64,000 nucleotides of DNA from an uncultured Planctomycetia bacterium (GCA_964409365.1 CAYPCX010000009.1:10390-74389), one strand, 5' to 3'. Positions 4,701 to 63,922 are shown, counted from the stretch's first letter. Notes: a model not told the origin generated them from the sequence alone. A program made the numbers and translations.

Positions 4701-7165
4701 CGCGAACAGTGCTTGATAACCTATTCAGATTGGAGATCTCATCTGATACGATTCCCGGCCCCGCGTTGATGAAAGAGCTGCGTCCGCGGGTCGAGGAACA
4801 GATGGAAAGACTCGAAAGCGGGTTTGATCCCGAGACTTTTGAATCTACCGATCACGATGTCCAGGAAGCTTTGAGATTTCTGGATGAATGGGACGGAAAA
4901 AAAGCCGAGGAAGAGACCGCGGAAGCCCTGCATGAGGTGTCACGGGAAGTATCGAAGAGGCTTTTACAGTCGTCTGTATGGGAAGAGGAAAACAAGAAAG
5001 AAAAACAAGCCGTTTTGGACCTTATCGTTGAGCGGGTATTGGAGAATGCGCTGGATAATCTCATGGGCATGGAAGAGGAAGAGGAGTGGGAAACGGAGGA
5101 AAAGAAAAAGCAGAAGAAAGAAGCAAGGGAAACAGAAAGAAAAAAAGTCAAGTCGATCTGGGAAGAGAAAATGGCAATAATAAAGTTGCGCATTAGGCTT
5201 ATTACTGCGAGAGAGGAGGTGGAGTCCAAAGAAAAAGATCCATTAAAATCTCCGAGCGCAGGTGATTATTATTTTCTGGGCCGTAATGAATTTTTCTTTG
5301 AGGATCCTTGGAAGCCGAAGGCATCATCCCGGGAAAGGGCGTCTGAGAGCACATTTAAAAATGCGTTATTGAAAACACCGAACGCTGCCCCGTTGAAGAA
5401 AGATTATTATTTGACCTTTGGGGTGGTAAAGCATGTTTATGAGAAATGGAATGAAGCAAAAACAGCTTATGAGTCATGTCTGCGCGAGTTCGGCTTTGAT
5501 CCCGAGGAACTGGATAGCCTCGAAGTGGCGTTAGCCAGATTCCCATGGTGGGATGGCAGGTTGGGAGAGGGGTTAAGGTTATTCTACGAGTTAAGTGCTT
5601 TTCAAATGACGCTGAACAGGTCTCCGAAAGTGGTTAAAAATCTGGGTAAACTGGGCGAATTTAAAAAAGCTGGTAAAAAAGAGGACCTGTTAAAAATAGC
5701 CCTGACTGTGCTTCTTCTGGGAAAAAGTAAACAGAAGATCCCCATCGGCGGAGAAGAAGAGTCGGAAAATGACGGAGCGCCTTCGCCCCAGCGGGGTATC
5801 GGGGCGCTCGCGCGGGAAGACGGCCCCATACCCGACCACAGGCTCGTGAACGCACTTGTTAAGGTGCTTTTTGAAAAAGGCCTTTTTGAGACACAAGAGG
5901 AGGATGTATACCTTTTCGGGGACGATACGTCCGGGAATTTCGGGGATCTTTATAATGACTGTCTGGACGAAAACGGGCAGAGGAAGGTGAGGGATATTTT
6001 CGGGGACGAGTTTCAGAAAGATACGGGTATTCGCCTGACCGATACCCGGGTGCTGCTGGAAGTAGGGAAACTTCGGAATATCGAGGGACATACCGGTGTG
6101 GAGAATGGGATGATCTATATATGCAAGGGCTGGAAATGGGAATTGGATAGATTTGTGGAGCATGAAAGAGCGGCACTCAGTGAGCATCGGGAAAAAGCGC
6201 TGGAAATATACAATGAAGAGGGACATTCTTATGAAACCTGGAAAGACATCCCTGAAAGTGAGCGGGCCGATGCGGCTAATGCCTTCAGAAAGTGGCGAAA
6301 AGAAAAGACCGAAGAGTATAACCGTTTTGCCGGAGAAGTCCATGAAAACGCCCCACTGGTTCGTGTGGCGGATGAACGCGCATCGGCGCAAAAGACCCTT
6401 CCCGAACTTTTTGATTACCGGAGGATCAGGGGAAACGCGGAGTTACAGATAAAGCTTCTTGTGCAGGCCATGATCGAATGGGCGGAGAAAAATAAGACTA
6501 GGGGCAAAGATGATGATAGGCCTTGCGTTCTCGCGTTAGACCTGGAACTTACGGAGGGTCAGATAAAAGGCCTTTATGATAAGCTTTACGAAGCGCTGGG
6601 GCAGCTTCCCCACAACAATGAAGAACTGGAAGTTTTTCTTGATAATCTCAGCATAGTCAGCGGGAAGGGTCCTTCTTTAGCTGAAAGACTTCATAATATC
6701 AGTACTCTGGGGCAAGGCCGGGTGAGTCCGGAAAATATTATCGTCATAACGCCAAGTCCGAATATGGAACATTTTGACGGCATTAAGGACGGGAACAAAA
6801 AAGCCACGGTCGTGGGAATACACGCCAGAGGAGCCCCGGAAACCGAGTATGGATTCCCGGTGAACGAGACATATTTGCCGCTACCGGACATTATGCTTTT
6901 AGCGATAGCAAGGCACTTAGGTAAGAAAAGAGAACATCTGCTGTGTCTTTTAGTAAGGACGCCCGGGGCGTTAAGGGCCGATCAATTGGAAAGATTCAGA
7001 GAAGGCACATTGGACCCGGAAGAGATATACAGGGAGCATAAAGGCATATTTTCGAATGATCCCGGCAGCTTCATCATCGAGCTCATCCCGGACGCGATAA
7101 AGGTCGATCCGGGTGAAAGAACTGAATTGATAGAAAGAACGAATTATCTATTGGCCCAGGCGTAA
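1709..7165 (+). CDS. Giant 1818-aa multidomain protein: N-terminal signal/anchor, two XRE-type HTH domains, 4-TM block, long K/E-rich coiled-coil region and a large C-terminal part with no recognisable domain
   Basis: 5.46 kb uninterrupted ORF. HTH motifs near aa 201-270 and 297-368 (LSQRKLAxxAxVxxxTISxIEKG). Hydrophobic helices near aa 812-894. Alternative ATG start at 1733 gives MRKLSGKRIIKVISFLLAILMVWQGVVWA. Confidence 0.85.
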   Translation: MAANIYITMRKLSGKRIIKVISFLLAILMVWQGVVWADPDIFRANNLQVHTLRKESDFFAVAAGYLSAFLIDLETRDDIHKNIFPMEEEVRRELARLLESDDIPKTYKRNPPTIERGPFGIGEFVIDAGVYKIRYYAPGIIQKRYFDADPSDPGASYDVREDRWVGKGRYLRRQVFIKRSPESETVPSVGKILEEALRKRFIYERVGYLRGLCPGLSQRKLADEARVETNTISEIEKGHTKHPTKDILRQIAFVLAYKLHVDMDDLLEKVFLVSPRPTVAGTPEERLAEVKELPSLGERIEYLREARGWLWQRELARETGLLVKNIHLIEIGKINNLSPKTSSRLAEALAPALDISPEELISEVFLLSTGQIAKGNAGTLYRELLAQAEKGKAGSMRFYKRWRLRKAARNLKKRIESSEIGSREKERMAKAIDTFLRADILEFKPIVLSDEGVDVDDQLRQCGWWLLGFNTIESEAIQSGEPVSALNALLKEKFPNTVGLSTRMLDLIGFNRFNYDEPLLQEYLLHEIICPVFGHARSRKIQEKIFFEDNYKGILGVTKDGHKDGELTLILERVIKEELGNFPKEVEKVSFEEELDEFKKLGFRNDGPRRAAQIYRAWMLRQSRICRLERGEDGKCPEEVDRLSRYMNAKMNWLLQMETAWSMAKDFLAARSKSKGTRKGRRDILETLWEDEERSPTKRLRGRQTLKNAVQVLRVAYIHIMQNLAGTLDAEVFDLIKEDPYIAKGKNLLERITGKDIEIEETEGTKEATATAGFSDEATTPEAEAKDIWVGMSFREKLKFVIGHVNWRSVGKTFALAFLLCGAFHLAVPLLIPQAYIWIFDLVAFGVPFGLFIYIIMKHFSWKGVFIAVGLSILLSMLLPIRWLGLSLAIVIMHRMWKQKGKEAYESPAGLWGSEKVLAEKEKDEDEADAEETHTEKDSKAQEKVKKKKISRGFQGRHPDIYITDDILTLIDRITKLRFPRPQEGGEDKYKRAAKLDTRTVLDNLFRLEISSDTIPGPALMKELRPRVEEQMERLESGFDPETFESTDHDVQEALRFLDEWDGKKAEEETAEALHEVSREVSKRLLQSSVWEEENKKEKQAVLDLIVERVLENALDNLMGMEEEEEWETEEKKKQKKEARETERKKVKSIWEEKMAIIKLRIRLITAREEVESKEKDPLKSPSAGDYYFLGRNEFFFEDPWKPKASSRERASESTFKNALLKTPNAAPLKKDYYLTFGVVKHVYEKWNEAKTAYESCLREFGFDPEELDSLEVALARFPWWDGRLGEGLRLFYELSAFQMTLNRSPKVVKNLGKLGEFKKAGKKEDLLKIALTVLLLGKSKQKIPIGGEEESENDGAPSPQRGIGALAREDGPIPDHRLVNALVKVLFEKGLFETQEEDVYLFGDDTSGNFGDLYNDCLDENGQRKVRDIFGDEFQKDTGIRLTDTRVLLEVGKLRNIEGHTGVENGMIYICKGWKWELDRFVEHERAALSEHREKALEIYNEEGHSYETWKDIPESERADAANAFRKWRKEKTEEYNRFAGEVHENAPLVRVADERASAQKTLPELFDYRRIRGNAELQIKLLVQAMIEWAEKNKTRGKDDDRPCVLALDLELTEGQIKGLYDKLYEALGQLPHNNEELEVFLDNLSIVSGKGPSLAERLHNISTLGQGRVSPENIIVITPSPNMEHFDGIKDGNKKATVVGIHARGAPETEYGFPVNETYLPLPDIMLLAIARHLGKKREHLLCLLVRTPGALRADQLERFREGTLDPEEIYREHKGIFSNDPGSFIIELIPDAIKVDPGERTELIERTNYLLAQA

Positions 7166-8612: not shown

Positions 8613-9170
8613 TTACATCTTTATAAAGTTGCGAATTATCCTCTTGCCGTTTTCCGTGAGGAACGATTCCGGATGGAATTGGAGGCCTATTATGGGCCAT
8701 TTCTTATGCTGTACTCCCATAACGAGGTTCTTTTTCGTCCATGCCGTGGTTTCCAGGCAGATGGGGATGTCGACCGCTTCAAGGGAATGGTACCTTGCGG
8801 CGGGAAAGGGAGAGGGGAGCCCCTTTAAGATGCCATTGCCGTTATGATATACGGGCGATGTGCTCCCGTGGACGATCTTATTCACCTGGACGATCTTACC
8901 GCCGAATACTTTCGCTATGCACTGGTGACCGAGGCAGATCCCCAGTATAGGGGTGTCGGGACCGAACCTCTTTATGATATCGTTCGAGATACCGGCCTCG
9001 TCCGGTGTCTTAGGTCCCGGGGAGATCACTATTTTTCGGGGCTTGAGGTCACGGATCTCTTTCAGTGTTATGCCGTCGTTCCTTTTTACGAGCAGGCTCA
9101 CGCCCTGTTCGGCGAAGGCCTGATACAGGTTGTAAGTGAACGAGTCGTAGTTGTCGATGAGTAAATACAT
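8613..9170 (-). CDS. pabA: Class-I glutamine amidotransferase component II (PabA/TrpG type)
   Basis: MYLLIDNYDSFTYNL start. GICLGHQ catalytic Cys motif. HPES near the C-terminus. Start re-picked at the internal Met. Confidence 0.75.
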   Translation of the reverse strand: MYLLIDNYDSFTYNLYQAFAEQGVSLLVKRNDGITLKEIRDLKPRKIVISPGPKTPDEAGISNDIIKRFGPDTPILGICLGHQCIAKVFGGKIVQVNKIVHGSTSPVYHNGNGILKGLPSPFPAARYHSLEAVDIPICLETTAWTKKNLVMGVQHKKWPIIGLQFHPESFLTENGKRIIRNFIKM

Positions 9171-9181
9171 GTTAAGAATAT

Positions 9182-9236
9182 ATTCTGGGGACATGTCTGG
9201 TCGTTTACATGGTGTTTACACAGACGTGTCCCCAGA
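9182..9236. terminator. 16-bp-stem hairpin between ispH stop and pabA start
   Basis: TCTGGGGACATGTCTG...CAGACGTGTCCCCAGA with one G-U position. Weak U tract. Position uncertain by about 1 nt. Confidence 0.35.
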
Positions 9237-9239
9237 ACC

Positions 9240-10091
9240 TCAGTTTTGTTTTTTGCTGATTTTCCGCAATTTTCTCACGATTTCCTTAGTGATATAGTCC
9301 GGGGTCGAGGCGCCCGCCATTATGCCGGCCTTTTTGGTGCCTTTGAACCAGGCCTTTTTCAGGTCTTTGGCCGATTCTATCCAGTGGGTATTCCTGTTCA
9401 TGCCCCTGGATATCTGGTACAGGCGTTTCGTGTTCGCGCTTGTCTTTGAACCGACTATAAGCACTATATCGTTCTTCCCGGGCAGCGATCTTATCTCCTG
9501 CTGTTTGACCCGGGTGGTCCGGCAGGTGGTGTCGTACAGTTTTACCTTTGGTATGATCTTTTTCAAGCGTTCCATGATCCCCCGGATGTTGTCCGAGCTC
9601 TGTGTCGATTGTGTTATAACAGCGGCCTTTTTGATACGCGCCAATCTTTTTACAGGTATCCTCTTCGAAGATTCAATGGTTATAGGTCTGGTCTTAAGCT
9701 GGCCGGCGATACCTTTTACTTCGTCATGGTTGATGTCGCCGATTATGATCATCTTGTTGTTTTTCTCGAGCCGTTTGGCTATTTTGTAAATGTCTTTCAC
9801 TTTGGGGCAGGTAGCGTCGACCACCTTATATCCGCATTTTTTTGCCTTATCGAAAACGCTTTTCGGGGCCCCGTGCGCTCTTATGAGGAGTGTCGAGCCT
9901 TTGTCCCGGGCCGTCAGGTTCTTTATCTTTTTTACGCCTTTTTCCGAAAGCTCCCTGACTACGAAGGTGTTATGGACGATATCCCCGAGCACGTAGACGT
10001 TATTTTTGCTTCCGGCCAGGTCCTTGCTTATGTTTATCGCGCGCCTGACACCGAAACAGAAACCCGAACTTTTAGCGATATTTATTTTCAT
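9240..10091 (-). CDS. ispH: 4-hydroxy-3-methylbut-2-enyl diphosphate reductase
   Basis: SGFCFGVRRAI, GDIVHN, ATCPKV and TTCRTT motifs typical of IspH/LytB. Confidence 0.9.
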   Translation of the reverse strand: MKINIAKSSGFCFGVRRAINISKDLAGSKNNVYVLGDIVHNTFVVRELSEKGVKKIKNLTARDKGSTLLIRAHGAPKSVFDKAKKCGYKVVDATCPKVKDIYKIAKRLEKNNKMIIIGDINHDEVKGIAGQLKTRPITIESSKRIPVKRLARIKKAAVITQSTQSSDNIRGIMERLKKIIPKVKLYDTTCRTTRVKQQEIRSLPGKNDIVLIVGSKTSANTKRLYQISRGMNRNTHWIESAKDLKKAWFKGTKKAGIMAGASTPDYITKEIVRKLRKISKKQN

Positions 10092-11149
10092 GTGTCCATA
10101 CCGGAAAAGAGTTTTTGAGAAAGGACTTTCAGCGCCTTTTTGTGCCCTTTTTTCATTTTGAGAGAGCGGAGAAGGGGGTCCGTTTTATCAAGAAGGCCGG
10201 ATATCGTGTCCAGGCAATGGTCCAGGGCTCCGGTCGTGATAACCAGCTTCCTGAACTTCGTGAGGTCCGTGTAGGTCTTTTTCTTTTTTTCCATGAGGTT
10301 TTTTAAGGTTTTCCTGCCACTTTTGTCCAGTTTACTGTAAGCGGACCATACGAGTAGTGTCTTTTTGGATTCGTCCAGGTCCGAAAGGACAGGTTTACCT
10401 ATTTTTTTGCTTGTGGAGAACACGTCAAGCAGGTCATCATATATCTGAAAGGCCTGTCCCAGCAGGATACCCAGCTTTGAAAGTTTTTTTATCTCTTTCC
10501 TGTCGGCCCCTGCCAGCACGGCCCCCATGACAAGGGGACATTCAAACGTATATTTGGCCGTTTTGAGGGTATATGTCAGGAATATGGACTTTCTCGATAT
10601 TCTGTCGACGCTCTCCATGCCGCTGGTAACGTCCAGGAACTCTCCGGCCGCGGTGGAAACCGCCGCCTCTGCCAGAAGTTTTAAGGCCTCTTCTTTGCGT
10701 GCCGGGGTTTCGTCCGAGGAAAGCAAGGCATCTATCGCCAGAGCGAACATCGCGTCCCCGGCGACTATGCTCAGGTCGGGGCCCGTTTTGCTTTTTCCTG
10801 GAAGACCGAGTTTCTTGTTAAAGACCTTATGCAGTGTCGGCTTCCCGCGTCTGATGGCGGAGTCGTCGATCACGTCGTCATGCGCCAGGAAAAAGTCGTG
10901 CATGAGTTCCAGCGAAAGGGCGCTCCTTAGGAGCTTTTTACGGGAAAAACTTTTTCTTTTCGTATATCCGAGATAGCTTATAAGAAAAAGAAGGGGGCGT
11001 ATCTTTTTGCCCTTGCGCCGCAGGAAGTCCTTTATGCCCGCGTAAAGCAGGCCCGATGCCCGGTCAAGGCCGTGCTTTTTATTGGCATACGGCAGGAAAT
11101 ACGCGAGTTCCCTGTCTATGTCTTTTTTGAGTTTTTCCAGCATGACCAT
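10088..11149 (-). CDS. Polyprenyl diphosphate synthase (FPP/GGPP synthase family)
   Basis: Two DDxxD motifs (AHDDVIDD and IYDDLLD). Overlaps ispH by 4 nt, so likely one operon. Confidence 0.8.
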   Translation of the reverse strand: MVMLEKLKKDIDRELAYFLPYANKKHGLDRASGLLYAGIKDFLRRKGKKIRPLLFLISYLGYTKRKSFSRKKLLRSALSLELMHDFFLAHDDVIDDSAIRRGKPTLHKVFNKKLGLPGKSKTGPDLSIVAGDAMFALAIDALLSSDETPARKEEALKLLAEAAVSTAAGEFLDVTSGMESVDRISRKSIFLTYTLKTAKYTFECPLVMGAVLAGADRKEIKKLSKLGILLGQAFQIYDDLLDVFSTSKKIGKPVLSDLDESKKTLLVWSAYSKLDKSGRKTLKNLMEKKKKTYTDLTKFRKLVITTGALDHCLDTISGLLDKTDPLLRSLKMKKGHKKALKVLSQKLFSGMDT

Positions 11150-11288: not shown

Positions 11289-11557
11289 GTCAGGTCTCAG
11301 GTGTCAGGTTTCAGGTGGCAGGTAACAGAAAACAGAAGACAGAAGGAAGTGTCAGAGTGTCACCGCTCGCTACGCTCGCTAGTGTCATAGTGTCAGTTTC
11401 AGGCGACTTGCGACTTGCGACTGGTGACTGGTGACTTGCGACTGGTTACTGGTTACTGGTTACTGGTTACTGGTTACTTTATCCTTGATACTCGACACTT
11501 TTTCCTTTTTCCTTTATCCTTGTTACTTGTTACTTGCTACTTGACACTTTATATGCT
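11289..11557. repeat. Heptamer-phased tandem-repeat blocks filling the divergent intergenic region
   Basis: Consecutive 7-bp unit arrays: TCAGGTN x5, ACAGAAG x3, AGTGTCA x4, GCGACTT/GTGACTG/GTTACTG x9, TTTATCC/TTTTTCC, TTGTTAC x3. Confidence 0.8.
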
Positions 11558-11582
11558 ATTTTCATTTAGTAAGGCAGGCCTT

Positions 11583-12941
11583 ATGAAAAAACTGATCGAT
11601 ATAGTTCCCGAACAGTACCGCGAAGAGCTCTTGAAAAAACGCACCTCGCTTATCAAGAACAGGGTGCTTCTTCTGTGCATTCTGGCTATCGCTATATATT
11701 TTGCCGTCGCCGCAATATATGTCCTGATAAATCCCGAAGAGTTCAGGACCCTCGATATCGTTGCCGGCCTGGCACTTGCGGCGGGCGCCGCGGCCGTGAT
11801 CTTTCTTAACAGGAAGTCCAGGACGCTGGTCGCGGCTAAATTCAACGCGTATCTTTTCATAGTTTTTCTTTTGGCTCTTGCCGTGAAAATGGGGATAGCT
11901 TATGCCGATGACGCCGAGACCAGCGCAACGACCCTGGTCTTTATCCTGTTCCTGGTATCTTCCACCATACCCTGGACGCCTTTTGAGATCGTATTGATAG
12001 GGGTGATGCATTCTGTCGCTTACACGGCCACGTACTTTATTGTCAATTATGTTCCCGGCCTGGAAATGGAACCTTTTACTATCAGGGATTTCCTGGACGG
12101 CCTGATCTTCATAGTTATGGTCCTGGTGTTGTGCGTTGTGATCCGCAGGAAGGACGCCGTGATGTATACCGAGGATTTCGTCCTCCTTAAAAGAGTCGAA
12201 TCTCAGAAAGAGCAGATGCATGACGAGCTGGAGTTCGCGACGAGGATACAAAAAACCCTTGTCCCGGGCCCCCTGGGCAATGACAGGGTGGATATAGCCG
12301 TGGATTATCTCCCGGTCTATTATATGGGCGGGGATTACGCGAAGTACAACGTGCTCGATGAGTACAGGATAATATTCATCATGTGCGATGTCACCGGCCA
12401 CGGCGTTCCGGCGGCTCTTTTGGTCAACAGGATACATGCCGAATTCGAGCGGCTGGCGAAGGAAGGCAGGGAACCCGGAGCGCTTTTGAACGAGCTTAAC
12501 GGCTTCATAAAAGAGGATTTTGAAGGGACTGACATGTACCTCACCGCTTTCTGCGGTCTGCTGGATTTCAGTAAAAAGGAGCTTTTGTATTCGAACTACG
12601 GGCACCCGCCGCAGTATCTTTACCGCGCGTCGTTATCATCTGTACAGGCCATGCCGGCGCAGACCGCGCTCTTAGGGCTTCCTTTCGATGATACGAACAT
12701 TTACCAGGACAGTATCCCGTTCGGCAAAGGGGACAGGGTGCTGCTTTTCACCGACGGGGTCACCGAGACGTTCAACGACAGGAAAGAAGAATTCGGCACT
12801 GGAAGAGTGGAAGACCTTCTTGCCAGGGAGCACGCGATCCCGGCGGGCGAGTTCAACCAGAAGCTTATCGGCGAGTTGAACGCCTTCAAGAGCGGAGACT
12901 TCAGGGACGACATATTCATCATGAGTGTCGCTATAAAATAG
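11583..12941 (+). CDS. Membrane-anchored PP2C-type (SpoIIE/RsbU family) serine phosphatase
   Basis: N-terminal multi-TM region then a PP2C core (CDVTGHGVPAALL, LFTDGVTE). Start re-picked at ATG 11583. The track ORF start at 11415 only reads through the repeat array. Confidence 0.75.
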   Translation: MKKLIDIVPEQYREELLKKRTSLIKNRVLLLCILAIAIYFAVAAIYVLINPEEFRTLDIVAGLALAAGAAAVIFLNRKSRTLVAAKFNAYLFIVFLLALAVKMGIAYADDAETSATTLVFILFLVSSTIPWTPFEIVLIGVMHSVAYTATYFIVNYVPGLEMEPFTIRDFLDGLIFIVMVLVLCVVIRRKDAVMYTEDFVLLKRVESQKEQMHDELEFATRIQKTLVPGPLGNDRVDIAVDYLPVYYMGGDYAKYNVLDEYRIIFIMCDVTGHGVPAALLVNRIHAEFERLAKEGREPGALLNELNGFIKEDFEGTDMYLTAFCGLLDFSKKELLYSNYGHPPQYLYRASLSSVQAMPAQTALLGLPFDDTNIYQDSIPFGKGDRVLLFTDGVTETFNDRKEEFGTGRVEDLLAREHAIPAGEFNQKLIGELNAFKSGDFRDDIFIMSVAIK

Positions 12942-13233: not shown

Positions 13234-15144
13234 TTACTCGCAGACGTTATAGGAACATTTGCAGTAAAAGGAAAGCATTTTCTCGGCTATTTTCTTCCAG
13301 CAGAATTCATTCCTTGCCAGTTCGAGCCCGTTGCGGGCTATTTTACTCCGGAAGGTCACATTTTTGTTGAGCACTAAAAGCGCCCAGCTCAGGTCTTTCT
13401 TGTTCACCGGGTTGACGATAAGACAGTTGTGCTTGTTCTTGAGGTATTTTCTGATGCCGGCGCGTTCGCTTACTATGACCGCTGACCCGCAGGCCATGGC
13501 CTCGGCGGCTGTCATCCCAAAGGGCTCGAATTTTGACGGCAGGACGAAGGCCTTGGCTTTCCTGTAATAAGAAGGAACAAAGTTGTCTTTGATGTGCCCG
13601 GTGTAAAAGATCCTGTTTTTGATCTGGGCTGCGTCAACTATTTCGCGAAGGTCCTGTTTTAGTTTTATCTCCCTGGTTTCCGGTCTTTTGGAACCTCCGC
13701 CGATCACGAGGAAAAGGTCTTTTGCCCTGGTAACGACCTTGGCGAAGGCCCTTAACAGGTAATCCAGGCCCTTGTTCGTGTCGAACCTGCCCATCCAGAA
13801 TATATAGTTCTGGGGGACGTCTATTTTTTTCTCTTTTTCTCCGCTTCTTAAGGGCCTGAAGAGGTTGGTATTCACACCGGCCGGGATGACGGTGTAGTTC
13901 TTTGACCTGTAGTTGTAGAACTTTTTTGAGAGTCTGACCATGTCCGGGCTCGTCATCACGAGTCCCCGGGCCTTCTTAAATATGATACGCTCGTATTTTA
14001 TCCTTTTTTTGAAGTTGAAAACTTTTTCCATCGTCTTCGTGTCGCCGCCCATCTGGAATTTCTTCCACGCGCCGAGGGAGTGATGAGTATGTATGAAGGG
14101 GCAGTGCAGCCGCTCGGTCAGTTTTATGGCGACATATCCGGCGCCCCAGTAATGCGAGTGGAACACGTCGTATGCCAGGCCCTGTTCCTTCATGAAACGC
14201 TCCATGTTCCTGGTAAAGGTGTCCAGATACGGAAAAAGTTTCTCTTTGGCTATGAACTTATCTCCGCCGCAAGGTATCCTTATTATGCGTACGTTCTTAG
14301 AGACGGGCTCTATTGTTCTCCTTTTCTGGAACTTCCTCGTGTAGATATCGACCTTGATGCCTTTTTTAGCTATGGCCTTGGCCAGTTCCAGGACGTAAGT
14401 GACCTGTCCGCCGGTATCCGTTTTACCGAGTGTCGGTTTAGCTTCGACATAGCCGTGGATGGACAGCATGCATACCCGTTTGATGTTGCTGGTGACCTTC
14501 CAGATGTCCGCCAGGGAGTAGTTTTTCCCTACCAGTATGTCTGCCAGTTTCGCGTGTTTGGATATGATGCCGTGTTCTATGGCCAGTATCTTCCTGTCAT
14601 AATCGTCTATTTTTTCCCTTTTTCTTTCCAGCCGGGTCTTGAGGGTGTCCCTGTAAGTGGGCAAAAGAAAGACCCTCTTATTGGCGTTCTTAAGCAGGGT
14701 GGTGTAGGTGCCCTCGATTATGAGCACCTCCGCTGTTTTGCACCTCAGGGTCTCCTTGCCGATCTTATCATTGTTGAAGTCGACGAGAGGTTTCAGGAGT
14801 TTTCCCGCACTGCAGTGTTTGAACCGCGCGATGTGCCTGTCCAGAAGGTCGAGTTTTACTTCGGAAGGCCCCACGATGGAGATATCCCTGCGGCGCATCA
14901 AATAGTTGGTCTTCGGGGGATAACGGAAATAGTCATCCTGGTGGATAGTGACGCTCTTTATGTCGTCCTTTTTGAAGAGGCGCGCCAGTTCATGGGCGAT
15001 CTCGGTCTTCCCCGAACCGGATTCGCCCGCTATGGTGATTACGTACCGTGAAGAGGAGGCCTGCACCTCGTGAAGTACCACCTTAACGATCTCTTTGGCC
15101 GCTTTTGTGTGGTGCCGTTTTATTATGAGTATATCCCCGCGCAT
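13234..15144 (-). CDS. Fusion protein: N-terminal uridine-kinase/phosphoribulokinase-like P-loop kinase domain + C-terminal sucrose-phosphate-synthase-like GT4 glycosyltransferase
   Basis: Walker A ITIAGESGSGKTEIA. Then HGY...LGKTDTGGQVTYVLELAKA (SPS/sucrose-synthase N-terminal signature) and the EPFGMTAAEAMACG GT4 motif. Confidence 0.7.
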   Translation of the reverse strand: MRGDILIIKRHHTKAAKEIVKVVLHEVQASSSRYVITIAGESGSGKTEIAHELARLFKKDDIKSVTIHQDDYFRYPPKTNYLMRRRDISIVGPSEVKLDLLDRHIARFKHCSAGKLLKPLVDFNNDKIGKETLRCKTAEVLIIEGTYTTLLKNANKRVFLLPTYRDTLKTRLERKREKIDDYDRKILAIEHGIISKHAKLADILVGKNYSLADIWKVTSNIKRVCMLSIHGYVEAKPTLGKTDTGGQVTYVLELAKAIAKKGIKVDIYTRKFQKRRTIEPVSKNVRIIRIPCGGDKFIAKEKLFPYLDTFTRNMERFMKEQGLAYDVFHSHYWGAGYVAIKLTERLHCPFIHTHHSLGAWKKFQMGGDTKTMEKVFNFKKRIKYERIIFKKARGLVMTSPDMVRLSKKFYNYRSKNYTVIPAGVNTNLFRPLRSGEKEKKIDVPQNYIFWMGRFDTNKGLDYLLRAFAKVVTRAKDLFLVIGGGSKRPETREIKLKQDLREIVDAAQIKNRIFYTGHIKDNFVPSYYRKAKAFVLPSKFEPFGMTAAEAMACGSAVIVSERAGIRKYLKNKHNCLIVNPVNKKDLSWALLVLNKNVTFRSKIARNGLELARNEFCWKKIAEKMLSFYCKCSYNVCE

Positions 15145-15285
15145 ATCGAATGCCTCGGACCCGCAAATATGATTTTCGTTGCCATCCGTTAGATATTTAT
15201 GCTATATATAATACTAAACTAATGGGCTAAAGCAAGCATATTTTGCCGGTACACGCGTGACTTACGTGGCTTACAGGAGGTTTTT

Positions 15286-16359
15286 ATGAAAATAGGTATG
15301 ATAGGAGCGTGGAACGCCGATTCCGGGGCGTCGATCCACGCCGAGCTTGTGGGCAGGGCCTGGGTCGAAAAGGGCATAGATCTCAAGGTCTTCACGTTCT
15401 ACAAACACGCCTTCCACGGCACCGCTCTTACTAAAAAACAGGATGAGGATTATGTTACGCGCTGTTTCACCGCTTACGGGTTCCCCGACCAGCAATTGGA
15501 TTCCAAGCCTATACTTGAAGCCGATTACGATATATTCGTCGCCCAGGACCTCGGCATGCTCCCCATGAACCTTTTACTGAACATATTCCCCGAGATACAG
15601 AAGAAAGCCAAGACCATCAATGTCGTCCACGATGGGGAGCTTTCCAGAAAGCCGGAATATTTCAAATTCAACTGGGACCACGTGGTCTGCTTTGACGACA
15701 GGTATTATGATTTTCTCAAGGGCGCGTATCCGGAGGGCATCCTGAGCATAATACCTTATCCTTCATACCCCCTTAAGCCCGGTGATATGGCGGAATCCAG
15801 GAAAGAGCTGGATCTTCCGATGGACAAGAAAATAGTCCTTCTTTTCGGCCAGGCGGCCGAGCACGCACTGAACACGGTCATCGTCCTGGACCGCCTGGCG
15901 GACAAGTATGATATATGCCTCGTCCTCCTTACCGAGGTGGAGAAGGTCCTCAGCGAGTTCAGGCGAATACAGGACAGGGTGAAGTTCGATTTCAAGGTGA
16001 TCGAGAAGTCCCCGGACCAGGATCTTCTTTTTAAATATCTATACGCTTCGGACTGCATGATCTACAACAAGCACTGGGCTCCCGTGGTCGTTGTGGGAAG
16101 CACTATATTCCAATGCCTGGGGTCTATGTGCCCGATCCTCGCCCGCGACACCAACTATGTTTATTCTTTCGGCAGGGAGGTCCTGAAGCACAAGCACTAT
16201 TATGACCTGGAAGACAACCTGATCGATGTGTTCGAGAAAGGTCAAAGATACCAGATACAGCAGAAAGTGGTCGAGGATTACCTGGGCAGGAACGCCGCGG
16301 CCCCGACCGCCCAGAAATTCCTTGAGCTTTTTGAGGACCTTTTAAAGAAAGAAAGATAG
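15286..16359 (+). CDS. Hypothetical protein with GT-B glycosyltransferase-like N-terminus
   Basis: MKIGMIGAWNADSGASIHAELV...GIDLKVFT resembles a GT-B N-terminal fold. No canonical C-terminal GT4 motif. AGGAGG RBS. Confidence 0.4.
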   Translation: MKIGMIGAWNADSGASIHAELVGRAWVEKGIDLKVFTFYKHAFHGTALTKKQDEDYVTRCFTAYGFPDQQLDSKPILEADYDIFVAQDLGMLPMNLLLNIFPEIQKKAKTINVVHDGELSRKPEYFKFNWDHVVCFDDRYYDFLKGAYPEGILSIIPYPSYPLKPGDMAESRKELDLPMDKKIVLLFGQAAEHALNTVIVLDRLADKYDICLVLLTEVEKVLSEFRRIQDRVKFDFKVIEKSPDQDLLFKYLYASDCMIYNKHWAPVVVVGSTIFQCLGSMCPILARDTNYVYSFGREVLKHKHYYDLEDNLIDVFEKGQRYQIQQKVVEDYLGRNAAAPTAQKFLELFEDLLKKER

Positions 16360-16373
16360 AGAGGAGAGTAAAA

Positions 16374-17294
16374 ATGGTGATGAAAAGATATAAAGGCAAC
16401 CCCATACTCGCTCCGAGGGGGAACGGATGGGAATCCGTTATGGTGTATAATGCAGCCGTTATCTACGAAGGCGGGAAGGTGCATATACTTTACAGGGCGC
16501 AGGGCGGCAAGACGGGCCCCTCAAGAGTAGGGTACGCTTCCAGTAAGGACGGGTTCAACATAGACGAGAGGCTGGATCATCCGATCTTCGGGCCCAGTCC
16601 CGACAGCGACCTTGATTTCTTCGGTATAGAGGATCCCAGGCTGACAAGGGTAGAGGATACGATATATCTCAATTACACGGCTTACGGGTCCAATATGGGC
16701 ATGGTGTTCCCGGTCAAGGGCGTACAGGTGGCGATCACGTCCATATCGGTGGATGATTTCCTCAACAAGAAATGGAACTGGGGGGAAAGGATATACCCCT
16801 TCTACAGAGTGGACAATAAGAATTCGTTCTTCCTGCCCGAGAAAGTGAACGGCAAATTCGTCCTGATACACAGAATACCGCCGCACATGTGGATCGCTTA
16901 TTCGGATGACCTTAAGAACTGGGAGAACCAGAAGATCCTCATGAGCCCCCAGTTCGACTGGGAGTATTTCAAGATAGGGGGAGGCGCCCCGCCGATCAAG
17001 ACGGACAAGGGCTGGATAACGATATACCACGGCGTCGACCGTAAGATGCAATACCGCCTGGGGCTTGCGCTCCTGGACCTCGAAGATCCGGGCAAGGTGA
17101 TCGCCAGGTATGACAAGCCCTTTCTCGAACCCGAGACCGATTATGAAAAGAGCGGCGTCGTGCCGAACGTCACTTTCACTTGCGGGGCAGTGACCATCGG
17201 TGATGAGCTGTTCCTGTATTACGGCGGGGCCGATACCGTTATCTGTGTTGCCACGGCCAAGGTCAAGGATGTCCTTAAGCTTTTGAACGTCTGA
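16374..17294 (+). CDS. GH130-family glycoside phosphorylase (beta-mannoside phosphorylase family, DUF377)
   Basis: NPIL, NAAVIY, DPRL, YYGGAD and related motifs of GH130. Confidence 0.75.
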   Translation: MVMKRYKGNPILAPRGNGWESVMVYNAAVIYEGGKVHILYRAQGGKTGPSRVGYASSKDGFNIDERLDHPIFGPSPDSDLDFFGIEDPRLTRVEDTIYLNYTAYGSNMGMVFPVKGVQVAITSISVDDFLNKKWNWGERIYPFYRVDNKNSFFLPEKVNGKFVLIHRIPPHMWIAYSDDLKNWENQKILMSPQFDWEYFKIGGGAPPIKTDKGWITIYHGVDRKMQYRLGLALLDLEDPGKVIARYDKPFLEPETDYEKSGVVPNVTFTCGAVTIGDELFLYYGGADTVICVATAKVKDVLKLLNV

Positions 17295-17306
17295 TAAGAG
17301 TTTTTT

Positions 17307-19760
17307 ATGGAGAACAAACAGCCAAAAGACGAGAACATCGTCGAAAGTCTGAAGAACGCTTTTATCCATAACCGCAGGTTCTCCCTCGCGAAGGACCTTT
17401 ATACCGCTACCGATCACGATAACTTCCAGTCGCTCGCGATGTCCATACGGGACCGCATGATAGAGAAGTGGATACTTACCCAGCAAAGGTACCATGACGA
17501 GAATTGCAAGCGGGTGTACTATCTTTCCATGGAGTTCCTCCCCGGACGGTTCCTTGCCAACAACATACTGAACCTGGGCCTGGAGGACGAATCCAAAAGG
17601 GCCATGCAGGAGCTGGGGTTCAGCGTGGAGGACCTTTACGAACGGGAGAAGGATCCCGGGCTCGGTAACGGAGGCCTGGGCCGGCTCGCGGCGTGTTTCA
17701 TGGATTCCATGGCTACTATCGGCATAGCGGCTACCGGTTACGGCATCAGGTACGACTACGGCATTTTCAACCAGAAGATCATGAACGGTTACCAGGTAGA
17801 ATACCCGGACGAATGGCTGAAGCTGGGCAACCCCTGGGAGTTCGAAAGGCCGGAACTCACCCACAAGGTGAGTTTTTACGGCAAGACGGCCAAACGCGTG
17901 GATAAAGGCGGCAGGTTCCGGGTGGACTGGATAGATACCAGGGACGTGACGGCGGTAGCTTATGACACGCCCATAGCGGGGTACAGGAACGATGTGGTGA
18001 ACAACCTGAGGCTCTGGTCAGCCAAGAGCACGGATGAGTTCGATCTGGATTATTTCAATACCGGGGACTATATAATGGCCTGCCAGGATAAGATAGTCTC
18101 CGAGAACATCTCCCGTGTCCTGTATCCCAGCGACAACATATATAAAGGGCTTGAGCTGCGCCTGAAACAGGAGTATTTCTTCACGTCGGCGTCGGTGCAG
18201 GACATAATACGCCGTTTCAAGATGCATAACGAGGACTTCCGCACGTTTCCCGATAAGGTCGCTATCCAGCTTAACGATACGCATCCGGCCGTGGGAATAG
18301 TGGAACTCATGCGGATCCTCATAGACGACGAAGACCTCGACTGGGAAACGGCGTGGGACATCACCGTGAGGACTTTCGGGTACACGAACCATACCATCAT
18401 GCCCGAAGCGCTGGAGACCTGGCCCGAATCGCTTTTCGGCAAGCTCCTGCCGAGGCATATGGAGCTTATTTACGAAATAAACAAACGCTTCCTGAGAGAA
18501 GTGACCAGCCGTTTTCCCCATGACCGCAAAAGACTGCAGAGGATGTCCATTGTAGAAGACGGCCCGGAGAAAAAAGTGAGGATGAGCCATCTTTCGATAG
18601 TGGGGAGCCACTCCATCAACGGTGTTTCCCAACTGCACACGGAACTTCTCAGGACCACGCTTTTCAAGGATTTTTACGAGCTTTACCCGCGTAAGTTCAA
18701 CAACAAGACCAACGGGATAACGCAGAGGCGATGGCTCAGAAAAGCGAACCCTCTTCTTTCGAAACTTATAAGTTCCACAATAGGTGAAGAGTGGGTAACG
18801 GACCTGGTGAAGCTGAAGAAGCTGGAACCATACGCGCAGGACCAGTCCTTCGGGGAAAGATGGAGAGCCGTCAAGACGGAGAACAAGATACGCTTCGCCA
18901 GGTTCATCAAAGATAAGAGCGGTATAGTGGTAGACCCTTATTCTATTTTTGATGTCCAGGTGAAAAGGATACATGAGTATAAACGGCAGACGCTTTTCGC
19001 GTTCTTTCTCATAGCCCAGTACCTAAAGATAAAGAATAATCCCAACGGAGACATCGTTCCCAGGACGGCGGTGATAGCCGGGAAGGCGGCCCCGTCCTAT
19101 GTCATGGCGAAACTTGTCATAAAGTTCATCAATAGTATTGCCGACGTGATCGACAAGGACCCCACCGTCAAGGACAAGCTGAAGGTGGTCTTCCTGGAAA
19201 ATTACGGTGTGTCACTGGCGGAGAGAGTATTTCCCGCGAGCGACCTTTCAGAGCAGATATCCACGGCCGGGAAGGAAGCGTCCGGGACGGGTAACATGAA
19301 ATTCATGCTTAACGGTGCGGTCACTATGGGCACGTGGGACGGAGCCAATATAGAGATCGCCGAGGAAGTAGGGCTCGATAACATTTTTATTTTCGGGCTT
19401 AAAGCGCACGAAGTGGCGGAACTGAAGAAAAAGGGGTATAACCCGCGGGATTACGTACAGAAGAATCCCCTGCTCAGCGAGGCGCTAAACCTGATCCGGG
19501 AGGATTTTTTCTCGCAGTTCGAGCCGGGGATCTTCAAACCGCTGTATGATTCTCTTTTATGGCACGACGATTATATGGTCCTGGCGGATTTCGAGGATTA
19601 TTTATTCACGCAGGACAAGGCCGCGCAGGCGTTCCTCGACCAGGACGCCTGGACGGCACGATCCATACTGAACACCGCGAATTCCGGTAAGTTTTCAAGT
19701 GACAGGACCGTCCGTGAATACGCGGAAGATATCTGGAAAGTGGACCACAGGGCTCAATGA
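17307..19760 (+). CDS. glgP: Alpha-glucan (glycogen/maltodextrin) phosphorylase
   Basis: GNGGLGRLAACFMDS, TNHTIMPEALE and PLP-lysine motif EASGTGNMKFMLNGA. Confidence 0.9.
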   Translation: MENKQPKDENIVESLKNAFIHNRRFSLAKDLYTATDHDNFQSLAMSIRDRMIEKWILTQQRYHDENCKRVYYLSMEFLPGRFLANNILNLGLEDESKRAMQELGFSVEDLYEREKDPGLGNGGLGRLAACFMDSMATIGIAATGYGIRYDYGIFNQKIMNGYQVEYPDEWLKLGNPWEFERPELTHKVSFYGKTAKRVDKGGRFRVDWIDTRDVTAVAYDTPIAGYRNDVVNNLRLWSAKSTDEFDLDYFNTGDYIMACQDKIVSENISRVLYPSDNIYKGLELRLKQEYFFTSASVQDIIRRFKMHNEDFRTFPDKVAIQLNDTHPAVGIVELMRILIDDEDLDWETAWDITVRTFGYTNHTIMPEALETWPESLFGKLLPRHMELIYEINKRFLREVTSRFPHDRKRLQRMSIVEDGPEKKVRMSHLSIVGSHSINGVSQLHTELLRTTLFKDFYELYPRKFNNKTNGITQRRWLRKANPLLSKLISSTIGEEWVTDLVKLKKLEPYAQDQSFGERWRAVKTENKIRFARFIKDKSGIVVDPYSIFDVQVKRIHEYKRQTLFAFFLIAQYLKIKNNPNGDIVPRTAVIAGKAAPSYVMAKLVIKFINSIADVIDKDPTVKDKLKVVFLENYGVSLAERVFPASDLSEQISTAGKEASGTGNMKFMLNGAVTMGTWDGANIEIAEEVGLDNIFIFGLKAHEVAELKKKGYNPRDYVQKNPLLSEALNLIREDFFSQFEPGIFKPLYDSLLWHDDYMVLADFEDYLFTQDKAAQAFLDQDAWTARSILNTANSGKFSSDRTVREYAEDIWKVDHRAQ

Positions 19761-39351: not shown

Positions 39352-40404
39352 TTGAATAAAAGGGCAATAATATCGTTGATAACGGCGCTGGTATTTTCTG
39401 CCGGTCTTTTTTCTTTCTGTCCTTATGTTTCTGCCGTAGACGAAGTGATTACCGATCTTTTTCCGGGCGCGGCCCCGCCCCCGACCGTCAAAGAAAGGAA
39501 GATTGAAGAGGAAGAAGCCGCTCCGACCTACCGTGACCGCACGCAAATAAGCGCTTTTATAGATATCCAGCAGGGCTATGATAACAACGTGGACCTCGAC
39601 CCACGCCGCCACAAGGATGGGTTCCTTCAGACAACCGCTAACGTGGAGGTCACATACGACCAGACCGATACGTTCAAGTTCGTGGCCGGTTCTGACCTTT
39701 TTAATATAACGTACTATAAATACAATATCGATAACATCCTGGACATAACTCCTTACGTAGGGTTCGACTGGGAGATCCTTCCCGGATTTGTTTCAAAGAA
39801 CCGCGTCACTTATGATTATTTCTCGTTCCCCAATGAGAAAGAAGACACTTTTTCAGGCCTAGTCCTTTCGACCTACTTGCGTCATTTTGTCACGGCGGAT
39901 TTTTACCAGGAGGCGGGTTTCGAGTACCTGAGGCGGTGGTATCCCGACCAGAAAGTGACGATGACCAACCTGGAGATAGGCAATGCGGAGCGCGAGGACA
40001 CGCGTTACAGGTACAAGTACAATCTTGGATACTTCACGAAGATGTTCTTCATCCGTCTGGAGAACGGGTTCATTTTTAACGATTCTACCGAGGTCTACCA
40101 GGACTATTATGATTACTGGAACTACAGGGTGAAGCCGGCAGTGATGGTGTTTTTTACCGATAAGTTGTATGCCGACGTTAGTCTTGTTTACAGGCACTTT
40201 ATCTATAAAGACCGTCGCAGTACCGAAGACATCAATGACGTTACCCGCAACAACCTTTTCATATTCAACTCAACGATCTATTTCGATATAACTAAGAACA
40301 TGACCCTGGAGTTCACTTATACCTATACCGAGAATGTTTCCAATGATCCTTTTGAAAAATATTCCGGCAGCATGATCAGCGGAGGCGTTTACTACAGTTT
40401 CTGA
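39352..40404 (+). CDS. Putative outer-membrane beta-barrel protein
   Basis: Signal peptide, alternating aromatic/hydrophilic beta-strand pattern, C-terminal VYYSF. TTG start per the ORF track. Confidence 0.5.
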   Translation: MNKRAIISLITALVFSAGLFSFCPYVSAVDEVITDLFPGAAPPPTVKERKIEEEEAAPTYRDRTQISAFIDIQQGYDNNVDLDPRRHKDGFLQTTANVEVTYDQTDTFKFVAGSDLFNITYYKYNIDNILDITPYVGFDWEILPGFVSKNRVTYDYFSFPNEKEDTFSGLVLSTYLRHFVTADFYQEAGFEYLRRWYPDQKVTMTNLEIGNAEREDTRYRYKYNLGYFTKMFFIRLENGFIFNDSTEVYQDYYDYWNYRVKPAVMVFFTDKLYADVSLVYRHFIYKDRRSTEDINDVTRNNLFIFNSTIYFDITKNMTLEFTYTYTENVSNDPFEKYSGSMISGGVYYSF

Positions 40405-56376: not shown

Positions 56377-56402
56377 ATATACGATAAAAAGGGAGAAGGG
56401 AT

Positions 56403-57569: not shown

Positions 57570-57595
57570 TACTTTAAAATAAAGAAGTTATAATA

Positions 57596-57630
57596 AAAAT
57601 GACCCGGTTTTATTTCCCGGGTCATTTTTT
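57596..57630 (+). terminator. Rho-independent terminator
   Basis: AAAAATGACCCGG-TTTTATTTC-CCGGGTCATTTTTT. Confidence 0.75.
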
Positions 57631-57658
57631 ACATAATTTCCACAACCCCTGAAAACTA

Positions 57659-57687
57659 TTGATTTTCCTTACTTAAATAGGTATAAT
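57659..57687 (+). promoter_or_regulatory. sigma70-like promoter TTGATT-17-TATAAT for the EPS export operon
   Basis: Hexamers read directly, 10 nt upstream of the wza ATG region. Confidence 0.5.
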
Positions 57688-57696
57688 AACTCTGCT

Positions 57697-58305: not shown

Positions 58306-58319
58306 AAAAGAAAAGTGAT

Positions 58320-60224: not shown

Positions 60225-60248
60225 ATTCGAAATGTCATAAGATCGGAC

Positions 60249-61721: not shown

Positions 61722-61727
61722 ACGGAA

Positions 61728-62231: not shown

Positions 62232-62343
62232 TCTTGGTCTTGACATTCCAGGCTTATATTAGTACAATGTTCATTCATTGAACATATATTAAGTTCTTAT
62301 CTTATCTCTACTTAAAACCTGTTATCATTCGCATCTTAAGATC

Positions 62344-62682: not shown

Positions 62683-62701
62683 TATTTTGATCAGGAGAAA
62701 C

Positions 62702-63898: not shown

Positions 63899-63922
63899 CG
63901 GGTATATTGAGGCGGTAAGGAA

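Follow-up and report, generated by a model that had tools for sequence, protein, structure and literature searches.

Fusion of an uncharacterised P-loop kinase, a candidate fructokinase, to a sucrose-phosphate-synthase-like glycosyltransferase, and recurrence of the pair across phyla

Introduction

Two successive steps around a glycoside phosphate are carried by a single polypeptide in the fused enzymes SPS-SPP, TPS-TPP and GgpPS, in all of which the transferase is joined to the phosphatase that acts downstream of it. Known sucrose-phosphate synthases (SPSs) either lack a further domain or carry an SPP-like phosphatase domain at the C-terminus. In a stretch of 64,000 nucleotides (nt) from an uncultured Planctomycetia bacterium (GCA_964409365.1 CAYPCX010000009.1:10390-74389), which as a whole is called the window below, one minus-strand gene joins an SPS-like glycosyltransferase of family GT4 to an N-terminal kinase domain, and the transferase would thus be fused to the enzyme upstream of it rather than downstream. 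The gene is divergent from an operon that encodes a GT-B-fold protein (ORF2), a phosphorylase of family GH130 and an alpha-glucan phosphorylase (GlgP). We describe here the fusion, the large kinase family to which its N-terminal domain belongs and the enzymes with which that family is associated, and discuss whether the kinase may be a fructokinase.

The dedicated kinase of sucrose loci is typically a fructokinase rather than a glucokinase, and such an enzyme is normally found in the csc- and sux-type loci. Among GT4 glycosyltransferases, mannosylfructose-phosphate synthase of Agrobacterium (MfpsA) takes fructose-6-phosphate as acceptor. In the SPS of Thermosynechococcus (TeSPS; Tll1590, PDB 6kih), Arg105 and Arg178 hold the phosphate of sucrose-6-phosphate, His158 and Glu331 are catalytic, Glu339 binds the ribose of UDP, and Ala48 and Gln51 contact fructose hydroxyls (PMC7264703). 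Of relevance to the neighbouring operon are the beta-1,2-mannosylated di-myo-inositol phosphate (MDIP) made by Thermotoga (PMC3124967) and GH130 enzymes such as Uhgb_MS, in which E136 is the +1-subsite Glu that sets beta-1,2 specificity (PMC12814180).

The fusion gene and its conservation

The fusion gene and the elements recognised in its two domains are listed below, with positions counted from the first letter of the window.

13234 to 15144, minus strand: fusion gene, an open reading frame of 636 amino acids (aa) with a P-loop kinase domain and an SPS-like GT4 domain (Pfam and NCBIfam domains)
14509 to 15144, minus strand: kinase domain, aa 1-212, of the phosphoribulokinase (PRK)/uridine-kinase fold (PF00485; profile against PDB)
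15004 to 15027, minus strand: Walker A motif GESGSGKT, aa 40-47, invariant in alignments A2, A3 and A6
14926 to 14943, minus strand: HQDDYF, aa 68-73, of which D70 is invariant and aligns with Asp62 of UCK2
14890 to 14919, minus strand: family-specific PPKTNxxxRR loop, with P76, P77, N80 and R84 invariant in every fusion type
14614 to 14634, minus strand: Arg-rich lid RLERKRE, with R171, R174 and R176 invariant, aligned with the lid region of UCK2 and PRK
13237 to 14487, minus strand: GT4 (GT-B) domain, aa 220-636, of the SPS/MshA/GlgM clade (TIGR02472, TIGR03449, PDB, Foldseek)
14401 to 14418, minus strand: DTGGQV, aa 243-248, of which T244 and Q247 align with Ala48 and Gln51 of TeSPS, invariant in alignment A2
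13990 to 14253, minus strand: predicted acceptor phosphate-binding residues K300, Y332, S356/K361 and R381 with catalytic His355, from the TeSPS alignment, invariant in A2
13501 to 13527, minus strand: EX7E element EPFGMTAAE, of which E540 and E548 align with Glu331 and Glu339 of TeSPS

The identical 636-aa protein was found on 4 contigs from independent sources in the protein database, and about 40 further fused protein clusters were recovered at 58% to 68% identity with the linker conserved, together with one more distant fused protein at 41% identity; the representative of a second 50%-identity cluster, P0449, is also fused. All of the fused clusters that carry a source name are from Omnitrophota, and by the names of these homologues the window, too, would belong to Omnitrophota. 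In syntenic close relatives the kinase (219 aa) and the GT4 (415 aa) each have a gene of their own, with an overlap of 4 nt between the two. Since the fused frame is kept in about 40 clusters, chance or sequencing error could not have produced it, and the gene is one form of a fusion/fission pair rather than the product of a frameshift. For the full-length protein, AlphaFold2 (pLDDT 91, pTM 0.76) predicts a compact alpha/beta kinase domain and a GT-B domain, which are joined by a short linker of low confidence at about aa 210-220.

A first-pass annotation of the window had placed the four open reading frames at the positions given here and below, three of them transcribed divergently from the fusion gene, and had pointed to the DTGGQV signature, which we located at aa 243-248; both observations held. 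It had also named no characterised enzyme of this architecture, and in the open-access literature that could be searched we likewise found neither a kinase-SPS fusion nor a P-loop fructokinase described, which is not proof of novelty. Two outcomes would have overturned its proposal, namely a frameshift-merged gene pair, which is ruled out by the conserved fused reading frame, and an N-terminal domain of unrelated fold, to which the kinase results bear.

The kinase domain

The PF00485 (PRK) model matched aa 35-150 with 41.2 bits (gathering score 22), and the other kinase fusion proteins described below scored 38 to 54 bits, which places the domain in this superfamily. When the family profile was compared with PDB, the matches were archaeal PRK 5b3f (5.7e-14), the Bacillus hypothetical protein 1rz3, human UCK2 (2.8e-8) and several PRKs (about 1e-7), and no other significant match beyond this set was found in PDB. 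With top matches that are PRK or UCK, the PRK/uridine-kinase type assigned by the first-pass annotation was borne out and an unrelated AAA/P-loop fold was ruled out. The fold search with the whole fusion protein returned GT-B matches only.

The kinase family shares with UCK and PRK the fold, the Walker A motif, the catalytic Asp and the Arg-rich lid. D70 is the aligned counterpart of UCK2 Asp62, the catalytic base of that enzyme, and E144-G145 are also invariant in the family alignments. The family differs from UCK and PRK in that it lies far under the equivalog cut-offs of both, has a PPKxN...R loop of its own, and has sugar enzymes as genomic partners. For uridine kinase, the score was 55.5 bits in comparison to a cut-off of 220.3 with TIGR00235, and 54.5 in comparison to 180 with NF004018; for phosphoribulokinase, it was 39.9 bits in comparison to 236 with NF005655 and 29.1 in comparison to 362 with NF011997. 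UCK2 contacts the nucleoside through D84, Y112 and H117, at which positions the family profile has G, V and D. These cut-offs and the replaced substrate residues rule out a true uridine kinase or PRK. The PPKTNxxxRR loop is likely the phosphate-acceptor binding loop. Judged from its sequence, the domain appears to be an active P-loop kinase, and the large, uncharacterised family to which it belongs is distinct from both uridine kinase and PRK.

The glycosyltransferase domain

The Pfam domains Glyco_transf_4, Glycos_transf_1 and GT-B_Sucrose_synth span aa 220-625, and the Pfam scores (87.8 and 115.1 bits), the E540-x7-E548 pair and a Foldseek TM of 0.8 identify the domain as a retaining GT4 glycosyltransferase. 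The PDB sequence matches were TeSPS (6kih, 4e-50) and MshA (3c48, 2e-38), with Halothermothrix SPS (2r60) about equally close, and the nearest structures by Foldseek were MshA, TeSPS, HoSPS and GlgM, with TM of 0.81 to 0.82. These nearest crystallised relatives, SPS, MshA and GlgM, all glycosylate a phosphorylated acceptor.

The alignment with TeSPS gave a counterpart for each of the residues that define its acceptor and catalytic sites: Arg105 corresponds to K300, Arg178 to R381, His158 to H355, Glu331 to E540, Glu339 to E548, Ala48 to T244 and Gln51 to Q247. All of these counterparts are invariant among the fused homologues (alignment A2), with Lys in place of Arg105, and the acceptor and catalytic residues of SPS (R105, R178, Q51, H158 and E331 in TeSPS) are thus retained. 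The domain shares with bacterial GT4-type SPS the GT-B/GT4 fold (about 27% identity, E = 4e-50, TM 0.81), the DTGGQ motif, the catalytic His, the EX7E element, two basic residues at the acceptor phosphate and the fructose-contacting Gln. It is unlike SPS in the score with the SPS equivalog domain model TIGR02472 (218.1 bits in comparison to a cut-off of 576), in the residue at TeSPS Arg253, which is Asn457 in the fusion protein, and in the N-terminal kinase domain.

The likeness to MshA (3c48, 3c4q) is of a similar order (2e-38, 27% identity, TM 0.82) and extends to the Lys/Tyr/Thr/Arg arrangement that binds the phosphate in MshA. The MshA model TIGR03449, however, scored 193.8 bits, under its cut-off of 462.5, MshA reads SGGM at the DTGGQ positions, and there is no mycothiol context. 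By sequence, then, the GT4 domain is a distinct subfamily. The JGI pipeline names orthologues mannosylfructose-phosphate synthase by automatic KO assignment only; that enzyme, too, has fructose-6-phosphate as acceptor, and one of this type would fit the mannose-related neighbours GH130 and ORF2.

A two-gene module across phyla

A word-indexed search with the kinase domain returned 1456 clusters from many phyla at 45% to 55% identity, nearly all of them standalone proteins of about 213 aa, to which annotation pipelines give the name 'uridine kinase' or 'zeta toxin family'. When 1.84 billion representatives were searched exhaustively with a profile, 249 clusters at E <= 1e-30 (50% identity clusters) were obtained, and a scan of GTDB species representatives gave at least 369 kinase loci, of which 80, from more than 15 phyla, were taken for neighbourhood analysis.

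The results showed that an SPS-like GT4 gene lies directly beside the kinase gene in 59 of the 80 loci; among the 21 loci without it, six end at a contig edge and eight carry a gene for a GH13-like protein of 700 aa in the same position. The adjacent GT4 genes are of two types. One type consists of orthologues of the GT4 in the window (41% to 48% identity), which lie 14 to 200 nt downstream of the kinase in Bacteroidota, Gemmatimonadota, Dehalococcoidia, Zixibacteria, Aminicenantes, Fermentibacteria, WOR-3 and others. The other type is longer and more strongly SPS-like (288 to 316 bits with TIGR02472), is found in Alpha-, Gamma- and Zetaproteobacteria, Nitrospiraceae and Elusimicrobia, and is often accompanied by GlgC (11 loci; 607 bits with NF001947) and by a HIT-like DUF4922 protein (9 loci) with an HxHxQ motif and weak similarity to Ap4A phosphorylase. 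Flanks with these two proteins suggest ADP-glucose chemistry. Kinase and SPS-like GT4 together are a two-gene module conserved across phyla.

When all genes in 82 loci were clustered, no conserved phosphatase or other third gene was found beside the kinase and GT4, and the recurring neighbours were lineage-specific (GlgC, DUF4922, the GH13-like 700-aa protein and syntenic housekeeping genes). The 700-aa family, from Spirochaetaceae, Acidimicrobiia and Chloroflexi, is encoded immediately downstream of the kinase; it is absent from Pfam and NCBIfam, shows GH13 region I/II-like motifs only, and weakly matches the maltodextrin glycosyltransferase of Thermotoga (1gju). Positions of these genes, and of HIT-like DUF4922 and GlgC genes in two proteobacterial flanks, are as follows.

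Locus L019, 3812 to 5938: 700-aa GH13-like gene
Locus L041, 7642 to 9729: 700-aa GH13-like gene
Locus L084, 7635 to 9728: 700-aa GH13-like gene (five more loci carry one)
Locus L047, 5845 to 6897, minus strand, and 4565 to 5848, plus strand: HIT-like DUF4922 and GlgC genes
Locus L073, 5849 to 6895, minus strand, and 9110 to 10414, minus strand: HIT-like DUF4922 and GlgC genes

Fusions of the kinase to sugar hydrolases

Besides the GT4 fusion, the kinase family was found joined to two types of glycoside hydrolase, neither of which (GH100 and TreC-type GH13) was found as a gene in the 80 kinase loci. Proteins of five 50%-identity clusters, 600 to 625 aa long, have an N-terminal domain like the alkaline/neutral invertases of family GH100, which matches InvB of Anabaena (6e-8) and CINV1 of Arabidopsis (1e-5), and a C-terminal kinase. 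In a further protein of 762 aa, P0407, the kinase is followed by a GH13 domain of the phosphotrehalase/oligo-1,6-glucosidase type (590 bits with NF008183, above its cut-off of 535), and beside its gene lie those for a GH37 trehalase, a GH100 protein and three sugar transporters. The invariant motifs of the kinase family are kept in all of these fusions.

Locus L093, 1403 to 3280, and locus L096, 8001 to 9809: GH100-kinase fusion genes (fusion proteins P0450, P0452, P0470, P0494 and P0497)
Locus L094, 6001 to 8289, and locus L095, 5241 to 7529: kinase-GH13 fusion genes (P0407)

One GH100-kinase fusion gene lies between genes for a LacI regulator and an MFS transporter; the other, from a metagenome-assembled genome (MAG) of Saprospiraceae, follows genes for LacI, a TonB-dependent receptor and an MFS transporter, and its product (MFK8101494.1) is named 'uridine kinase' by NCBI. 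The csc locus of E. coli and the sux locus of Xanthomonas, both for sucrose, have these same two layouts.

Proposed function of the fusion protein

A free hexose that needs phosphorylation is the common denominator of the SPS-like GT4, the invertase-like GH100 and the GH13 enzymes, and a hexose kinase is therefore proposed. The kinase domain would phosphorylate a free hexose, most likely fructose, with ATP to give fructose-6-phosphate, and the GT4 domain would move a hexose from a nucleoside diphosphate (NDP)-sugar onto that fructose-6-phosphate. The donor could be UDP- or ADP-glucose as in SPS, or possibly GDP-mannose as in mannosylfructose-phosphate synthase, and the product would be sucrose-6F-phosphate or a close, possibly mannosyl, analogue, so that the fusion would join two consecutive steps in one polypeptide. 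We consider it moderately probable that a P-loop hexose kinase, probably a fructokinase, feeds fructose-6-phosphate to the fused GT4 to form a glycosyl-fructose phosphate, and hold with good confidence the weaker claim that the adjacent sugar enzyme uses a sugar phosphate which the kinase supplies or handles. Formation of the GT4's phosphorylated acceptor by the kinase, an idea already raised in the first-pass annotation, fits the adjacency of the two across phyla, the conserved phosphate-binding residues of SPS and MshA, and the GH100 and GH13 fusions. Which sugar the kinase takes, which acceptor and donor the GT4 uses, in which direction the module runs in the cell, and whether it serves compatible-solute formation or carbon recycling are matters of inference.

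The proposed role, and the position beside or fused with a sucrose hydrolase, LacI and a transporter, or beside SPS, would be those of the CscK and ScrK fructokinases, from which the family differs in fold, being P-loop NMP-kinase-like and of neither the ribokinase (PfkB) nor the ROK type; the activity itself is proposed by analogy. Extended to the whole family, the proposal becomes a tentative one, to which we give somewhat less than even credence: the proteins of about 213 aa that are labelled 'uridine kinase' or 'zeta toxin family' would be unrecognised fructokinases of P-loop fold, in more than 15 mostly uncultured phyla and repeatedly joined to sucrose enzymes, and the Omnitrophota fusion would convert fructose, ATP and an NDP-sugar to sucrose-6-phosphate or its mannosyl analogue.

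Several observations weigh against a fructose-6-phosphate-forming kinase coupled to an SPS-like transferase. The TIGR02472 score is far under its cut-off and the MshA score is nearly equal, so that an inositol phosphate or another phospho-acceptor is possible; Arg253 of TeSPS is replaced by Asn; and no sucrose-phosphate phosphatase gene was found beside the module in the window or in the 80 loci. On the kinase side, K78 and R84, two basic residues that never vary in the acceptor loop, could point to an anionic substrate, GH100 releases both glucose and fructose and as a partner does not decide between them, and the TreC/oligo-1,6-glucosidase-like GH13 partner beside a GH37 trehalase fits a glucokinase equally well.

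The last two points lead to the alternative that survives best, which we nevertheless regard as unlikely: the kinase would be a glucokinase and the GT4 would glycosylate glucose-6-phosphate or another glucose phosphate, in a metabolism of trehalose-6-phosphate-like compounds or alpha-glucosides. Glucose is released by GH13 as well as by GH100, GlgM as a close structural relative uses glucose-1-phosphate, and the GlgC and GH13-like neighbours point to glucose chemistry. However, every adjacent GT4 type best matches the SPS and sucrose synthase families, and the Gln that contacts fructose in SPS is invariant. To our knowledge, sucrose hydrolysis is the only activity of GH100, and we know of no GT4 with glucose-6-phosphate as acceptor; the dedicated kinase of sucrose loci, as stated above, is typically one for fructose.

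Slightly less likely still is a kinase that makes some other phospho-acceptor, such as myo-inositol phosphate or phosphoglycerate, for an MshA-like GT4, the product being a solute of the glycosyl-inositol-phosphate type that would be mannosylated and recycled by ORF2 and GH130; this comes close to the single pathway of the first-pass annotation. The MshA and SPS scores of the GT4 (194 and 218 bits) and the place of MshA at the head of the Foldseek list speak for such an acceptor, as does the beta-1,2-mannosylated di-myo-inositol phosphate of Thermotoga (PMC3124967). In two lineages, moreover, ORF2-like and GH130 genes lie in operons with inositol-1-phosphate synthase and/or IPCT/DIPPS, and at one locus (L069) such an operon adjoins a kinase-GT4 pair. 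This leaves unexplained the GH100 and GH13 fusions and the catabolic loci with LacI and transporters; kinase and GT4 occur without ORF2 or GH130 in 78 of the 80 loci, and the DTGGQ motif is that of SPS and sucrose synthase, in comparison to SGGM in MshA.

We regard as improbable that the module runs in the catabolic direction, in which a disaccharide would be the substrate of the kinase, with sucrose, for instance, giving sucrose-6F-phosphate, and the GT4, reversed with NDP, would release an NDP-sugar and fructose-6-phosphate. In its favour, a glycosyl-furanoside could fit a nucleoside-kinase-like fold, ADP-glucose could be processed by HIT-like DUF4922 and GlgC in the proteobacterial loci, and no phosphatase is encoded beside the module; yet a sucrose kinase fused to an invertase-like hydrolase would be self-defeating, and the scheme has no known precedent and is not required by the data.

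An ordinary uridine/cytidine kinase, or a regulatory nucleotide-binding domain with no sugar substrate, is very improbable: the best NCBIfam match is indeed udk (55 bits), and sources do name relatives 'uridine kinase', but the score is four-fold under the udk cut-off, the residues that contact base and ribose in UCK2 are not conserved, and persistent operon and fusion linkage to GT4, GH100 and GH13 is unexpected for a nucleoside kinase, while the conserved catalytic Asp and lid arginines weigh against a regulatory domain. That a frameshift or assembly artefact merged two genes, as the separate overlapping genes of close relatives might suggest, is refuted by the identical protein on 4 contigs, the roughly 40 fused clusters with conserved linker and the fused P0449.

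If the family does phosphorylate fructose or another hexose, hundreds of genomes would hold a mis-annotated 'uridine kinase' that is an enzyme of sugar metabolism, and a non-homologous isofunctional class, unrelated to the PfkB, ROK and hexokinase families, would be added to the fructokinases. Such a class would close 'missing fructokinase' gaps where the metabolism of uncultured phyla is reconstructed, among them Omnitrophota, Bacteroidales MAGs, Latescibacterota, Zixibacteria and marine Proteobacteria. With the fused kinase-SPS, a single compact protein would then lead from free fructose to a glycosyl-fructose phosphate, which is of relevance to compatible-solute biology and to the enzymatic making of compounds of the sucrose-6-phosphate type.

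The divergent ORF2-GH130-GlgP operon

15145 to 15285, no strand: divergent intergenic region of 141 nt (sequence)
15286 to 16359, plus strand: ORF2 (357 aa), with a predicted GT-B fold, from a family that Pfam lacks and whose genes are always paired with one for GH130
16374 to 17294, plus strand: GH130 gene, 306 aa, beta-1,2-mannoside-phosphorylase type (GH130_6-like)
17307 to 19760, plus strand: GlgP gene, 817 aa, glycogen/alpha-glucan phosphorylase (GT35)

With gaps of just 14 and 12 nt, ORF2, GH130 and GlgP form a tightly packed operon that is divergent from the fusion gene. An AGGAGG ribosome-binding site lies 7 nt 5' of the ORF2 start in the intergenic region; the scan for consensus promoters and terminators gave match counts at chance level.

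The ORF2 protein had no match in Pfam, NCBIfam or PDB sequences. Its AlphaFold2 model (pLDDT 94, pTM 0.90) predicts a GT-B fold of two Rossmann domains, with MshA and BshA as nearest structures by Foldseek (probability 1.0, TM 0.70 to 0.77, 14% identity). The EX7E element was not found: the matching stretch, judged by eye and not by structural superposition, reads VVVVGSTIFQCLGSMCP, with Glu at neither position. GH130 matched PF04041 with 201.8 bits and PDB entries 7fip and 9fj8 with 1.5e-75 and 2e-72. Its E86 and D87 align with E136 and D137 of Uhgb_MS, so that the beta-1,2-specifying Glu and the catalytic Asp are kept, and the score with the beta-1,2-mannobiose phosphorylase equivalog model NF052550 was 290.5 bits, under the cut-off of 450. 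About half of the aligned residues are common to the window enzyme and the GH130_6 enzymes Teth514_1789 and Teth514_1788 (1.5e-75 and 2e-72). It lacks the chain-length-limiting Trp of Teth514_1789, with a 7-residue insertion there, and its partner is a GT-B protein absent from Pfam instead of the ABC-transporter/GDP-mannose cluster of Thermoanaerobacter. GlgP (1201.4 bits with TIGR02093, cut-off 552.9; 1113 bits with PF00343) is an ordinary alpha-glucan phosphorylase. The first-pass labels of a GT-B-like protein, a GH130 and a glgP are thus confirmed, for ORF2 by the predicted fold and for the others by their family scores.

Homologues of ORF2 form 345 clusters, and in Stahlbacteria, Bathyarchaeia and another lineage they are encoded directly upstream of a GH130 gene with no kinase or GT4 nearby. 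At two loci (L012 and L069) a paralogous pair of ORF2-like and GH130 genes follows a GT4 gene and an IPCT/DIPPS gene (NTP_transferase and CDP-OH_P_transf domains), and one of these, L012, also encodes inositol-1-phosphate synthase.

Locus L012, 3712 to 6136 and 7001 to 13443: stretches with ORF2-like genes, always followed by a GH130 gene
Locus L069, 9053 to 13717: stretch with an ORF2-like gene followed by a GH130 gene
Locus L010, 7001 to 13566: stretch with an ORF2-like gene followed by a GH130 gene
Locus L011, 7001 to 8974: stretch with an ORF2-like gene followed by a GH130 gene

ORF2 and GH130 are an independent module, probably for synthesis and phosphorolysis of an intracellular beta-1,2-mannoside, and the most likely task of the operon as a whole is to handle, by phosphorolysis, beta-1,2-mannosides inside the cell and glycogen. 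By analogy with the MDIP of Thermotoga, the pair may in some lineages be built on an inositol-phosphate solute; the operons of L012 and L069 are a hint that beta-mannosylated inositol-phosphate solutes may be made beyond Thermotogae, and also by an archaeon (Bathyarchaeia). The DIP-synthesis gene context, taken as a lead, raises the thought that ORF2 may resemble the Thermotoga MDIP synthase TM0359, a beta-1,2-mannosyltransferase. Either way, a GT-B family absent from Pfam goes together with beta-1,2-mannoside phosphorylases and, in part of the lineages, with genes for inositol-phosphate solutes.

The first-pass annotation had suggested that the fusion, GH130 and GlgP act together, and this part of it found little support. 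Kinase and GT4 occur without GH130, ORF2 or GlgP in 78 of the 80 loci, and the two pairs are conserved separately, which speaks against a single operon-level pathway with GH130 and GlgP. The link of the ORF2 operon to the fusion lies inside a long Omnitrophota synteny block and is absent from the distant fused homologue; adjacency within such long conserved synteny says little about function. Outside that block, the two pairs were found independently together again only at L069. The operon is a neighbour of the kinase-GT4 unit, and, with ORF2 and GH130 recurring alone in other phyla, their membership in one pathway is weakly supported. A metabolic link in which phosphorolysis of glycogen and mannan gives hexose-1-phosphates, and from these the NDP-sugar donors of the GT4, is conceivable but not supported.

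Other features of the window

The window holds two genes for SpoIIE/PP2C-type phosphatases (40404 to 42317 and 11415 to 12941), one of which carries a CHASE2 sensor domain; the other adjoins the fusion gene and is convergent with it, and this synteny is kept in relatives. Between a polyprenyl synthase gene and the SpoIIE-phosphatase gene, the intergenic region is occupied at 11289 to 11552 by degenerate tandem heptamers, about 35 units in all, which read GTCAGGT, then ACTGGTT, then ACTTGTT. The listed TTG start at 11415 reads through this array, and the true start of the SpoIIE gene is therefore probably further downstream.

A very large open reading frame of 1818 aa, with a signal-like segment at its N-terminus, occupies 1709 to 7165. 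At 44192 to 46081, a bifunctional ATP sulfurylase/APS kinase (PUA_2, ATP-sulfurylase and APS_kinase domains) is encoded, followed by a CitMHS/TrkA_C transporter. From 56000 to 64000 the G+C content falls from about 0.51 to 0.39-0.43 across genes of the polysaccharide-biosynthesis type, among them a Wzz/GNVR tyrosine-kinase-like gene (58320 to 60224) and a GT4 gene (62642 to 63898), and this block may be a horizontally acquired surface-polysaccharide island.

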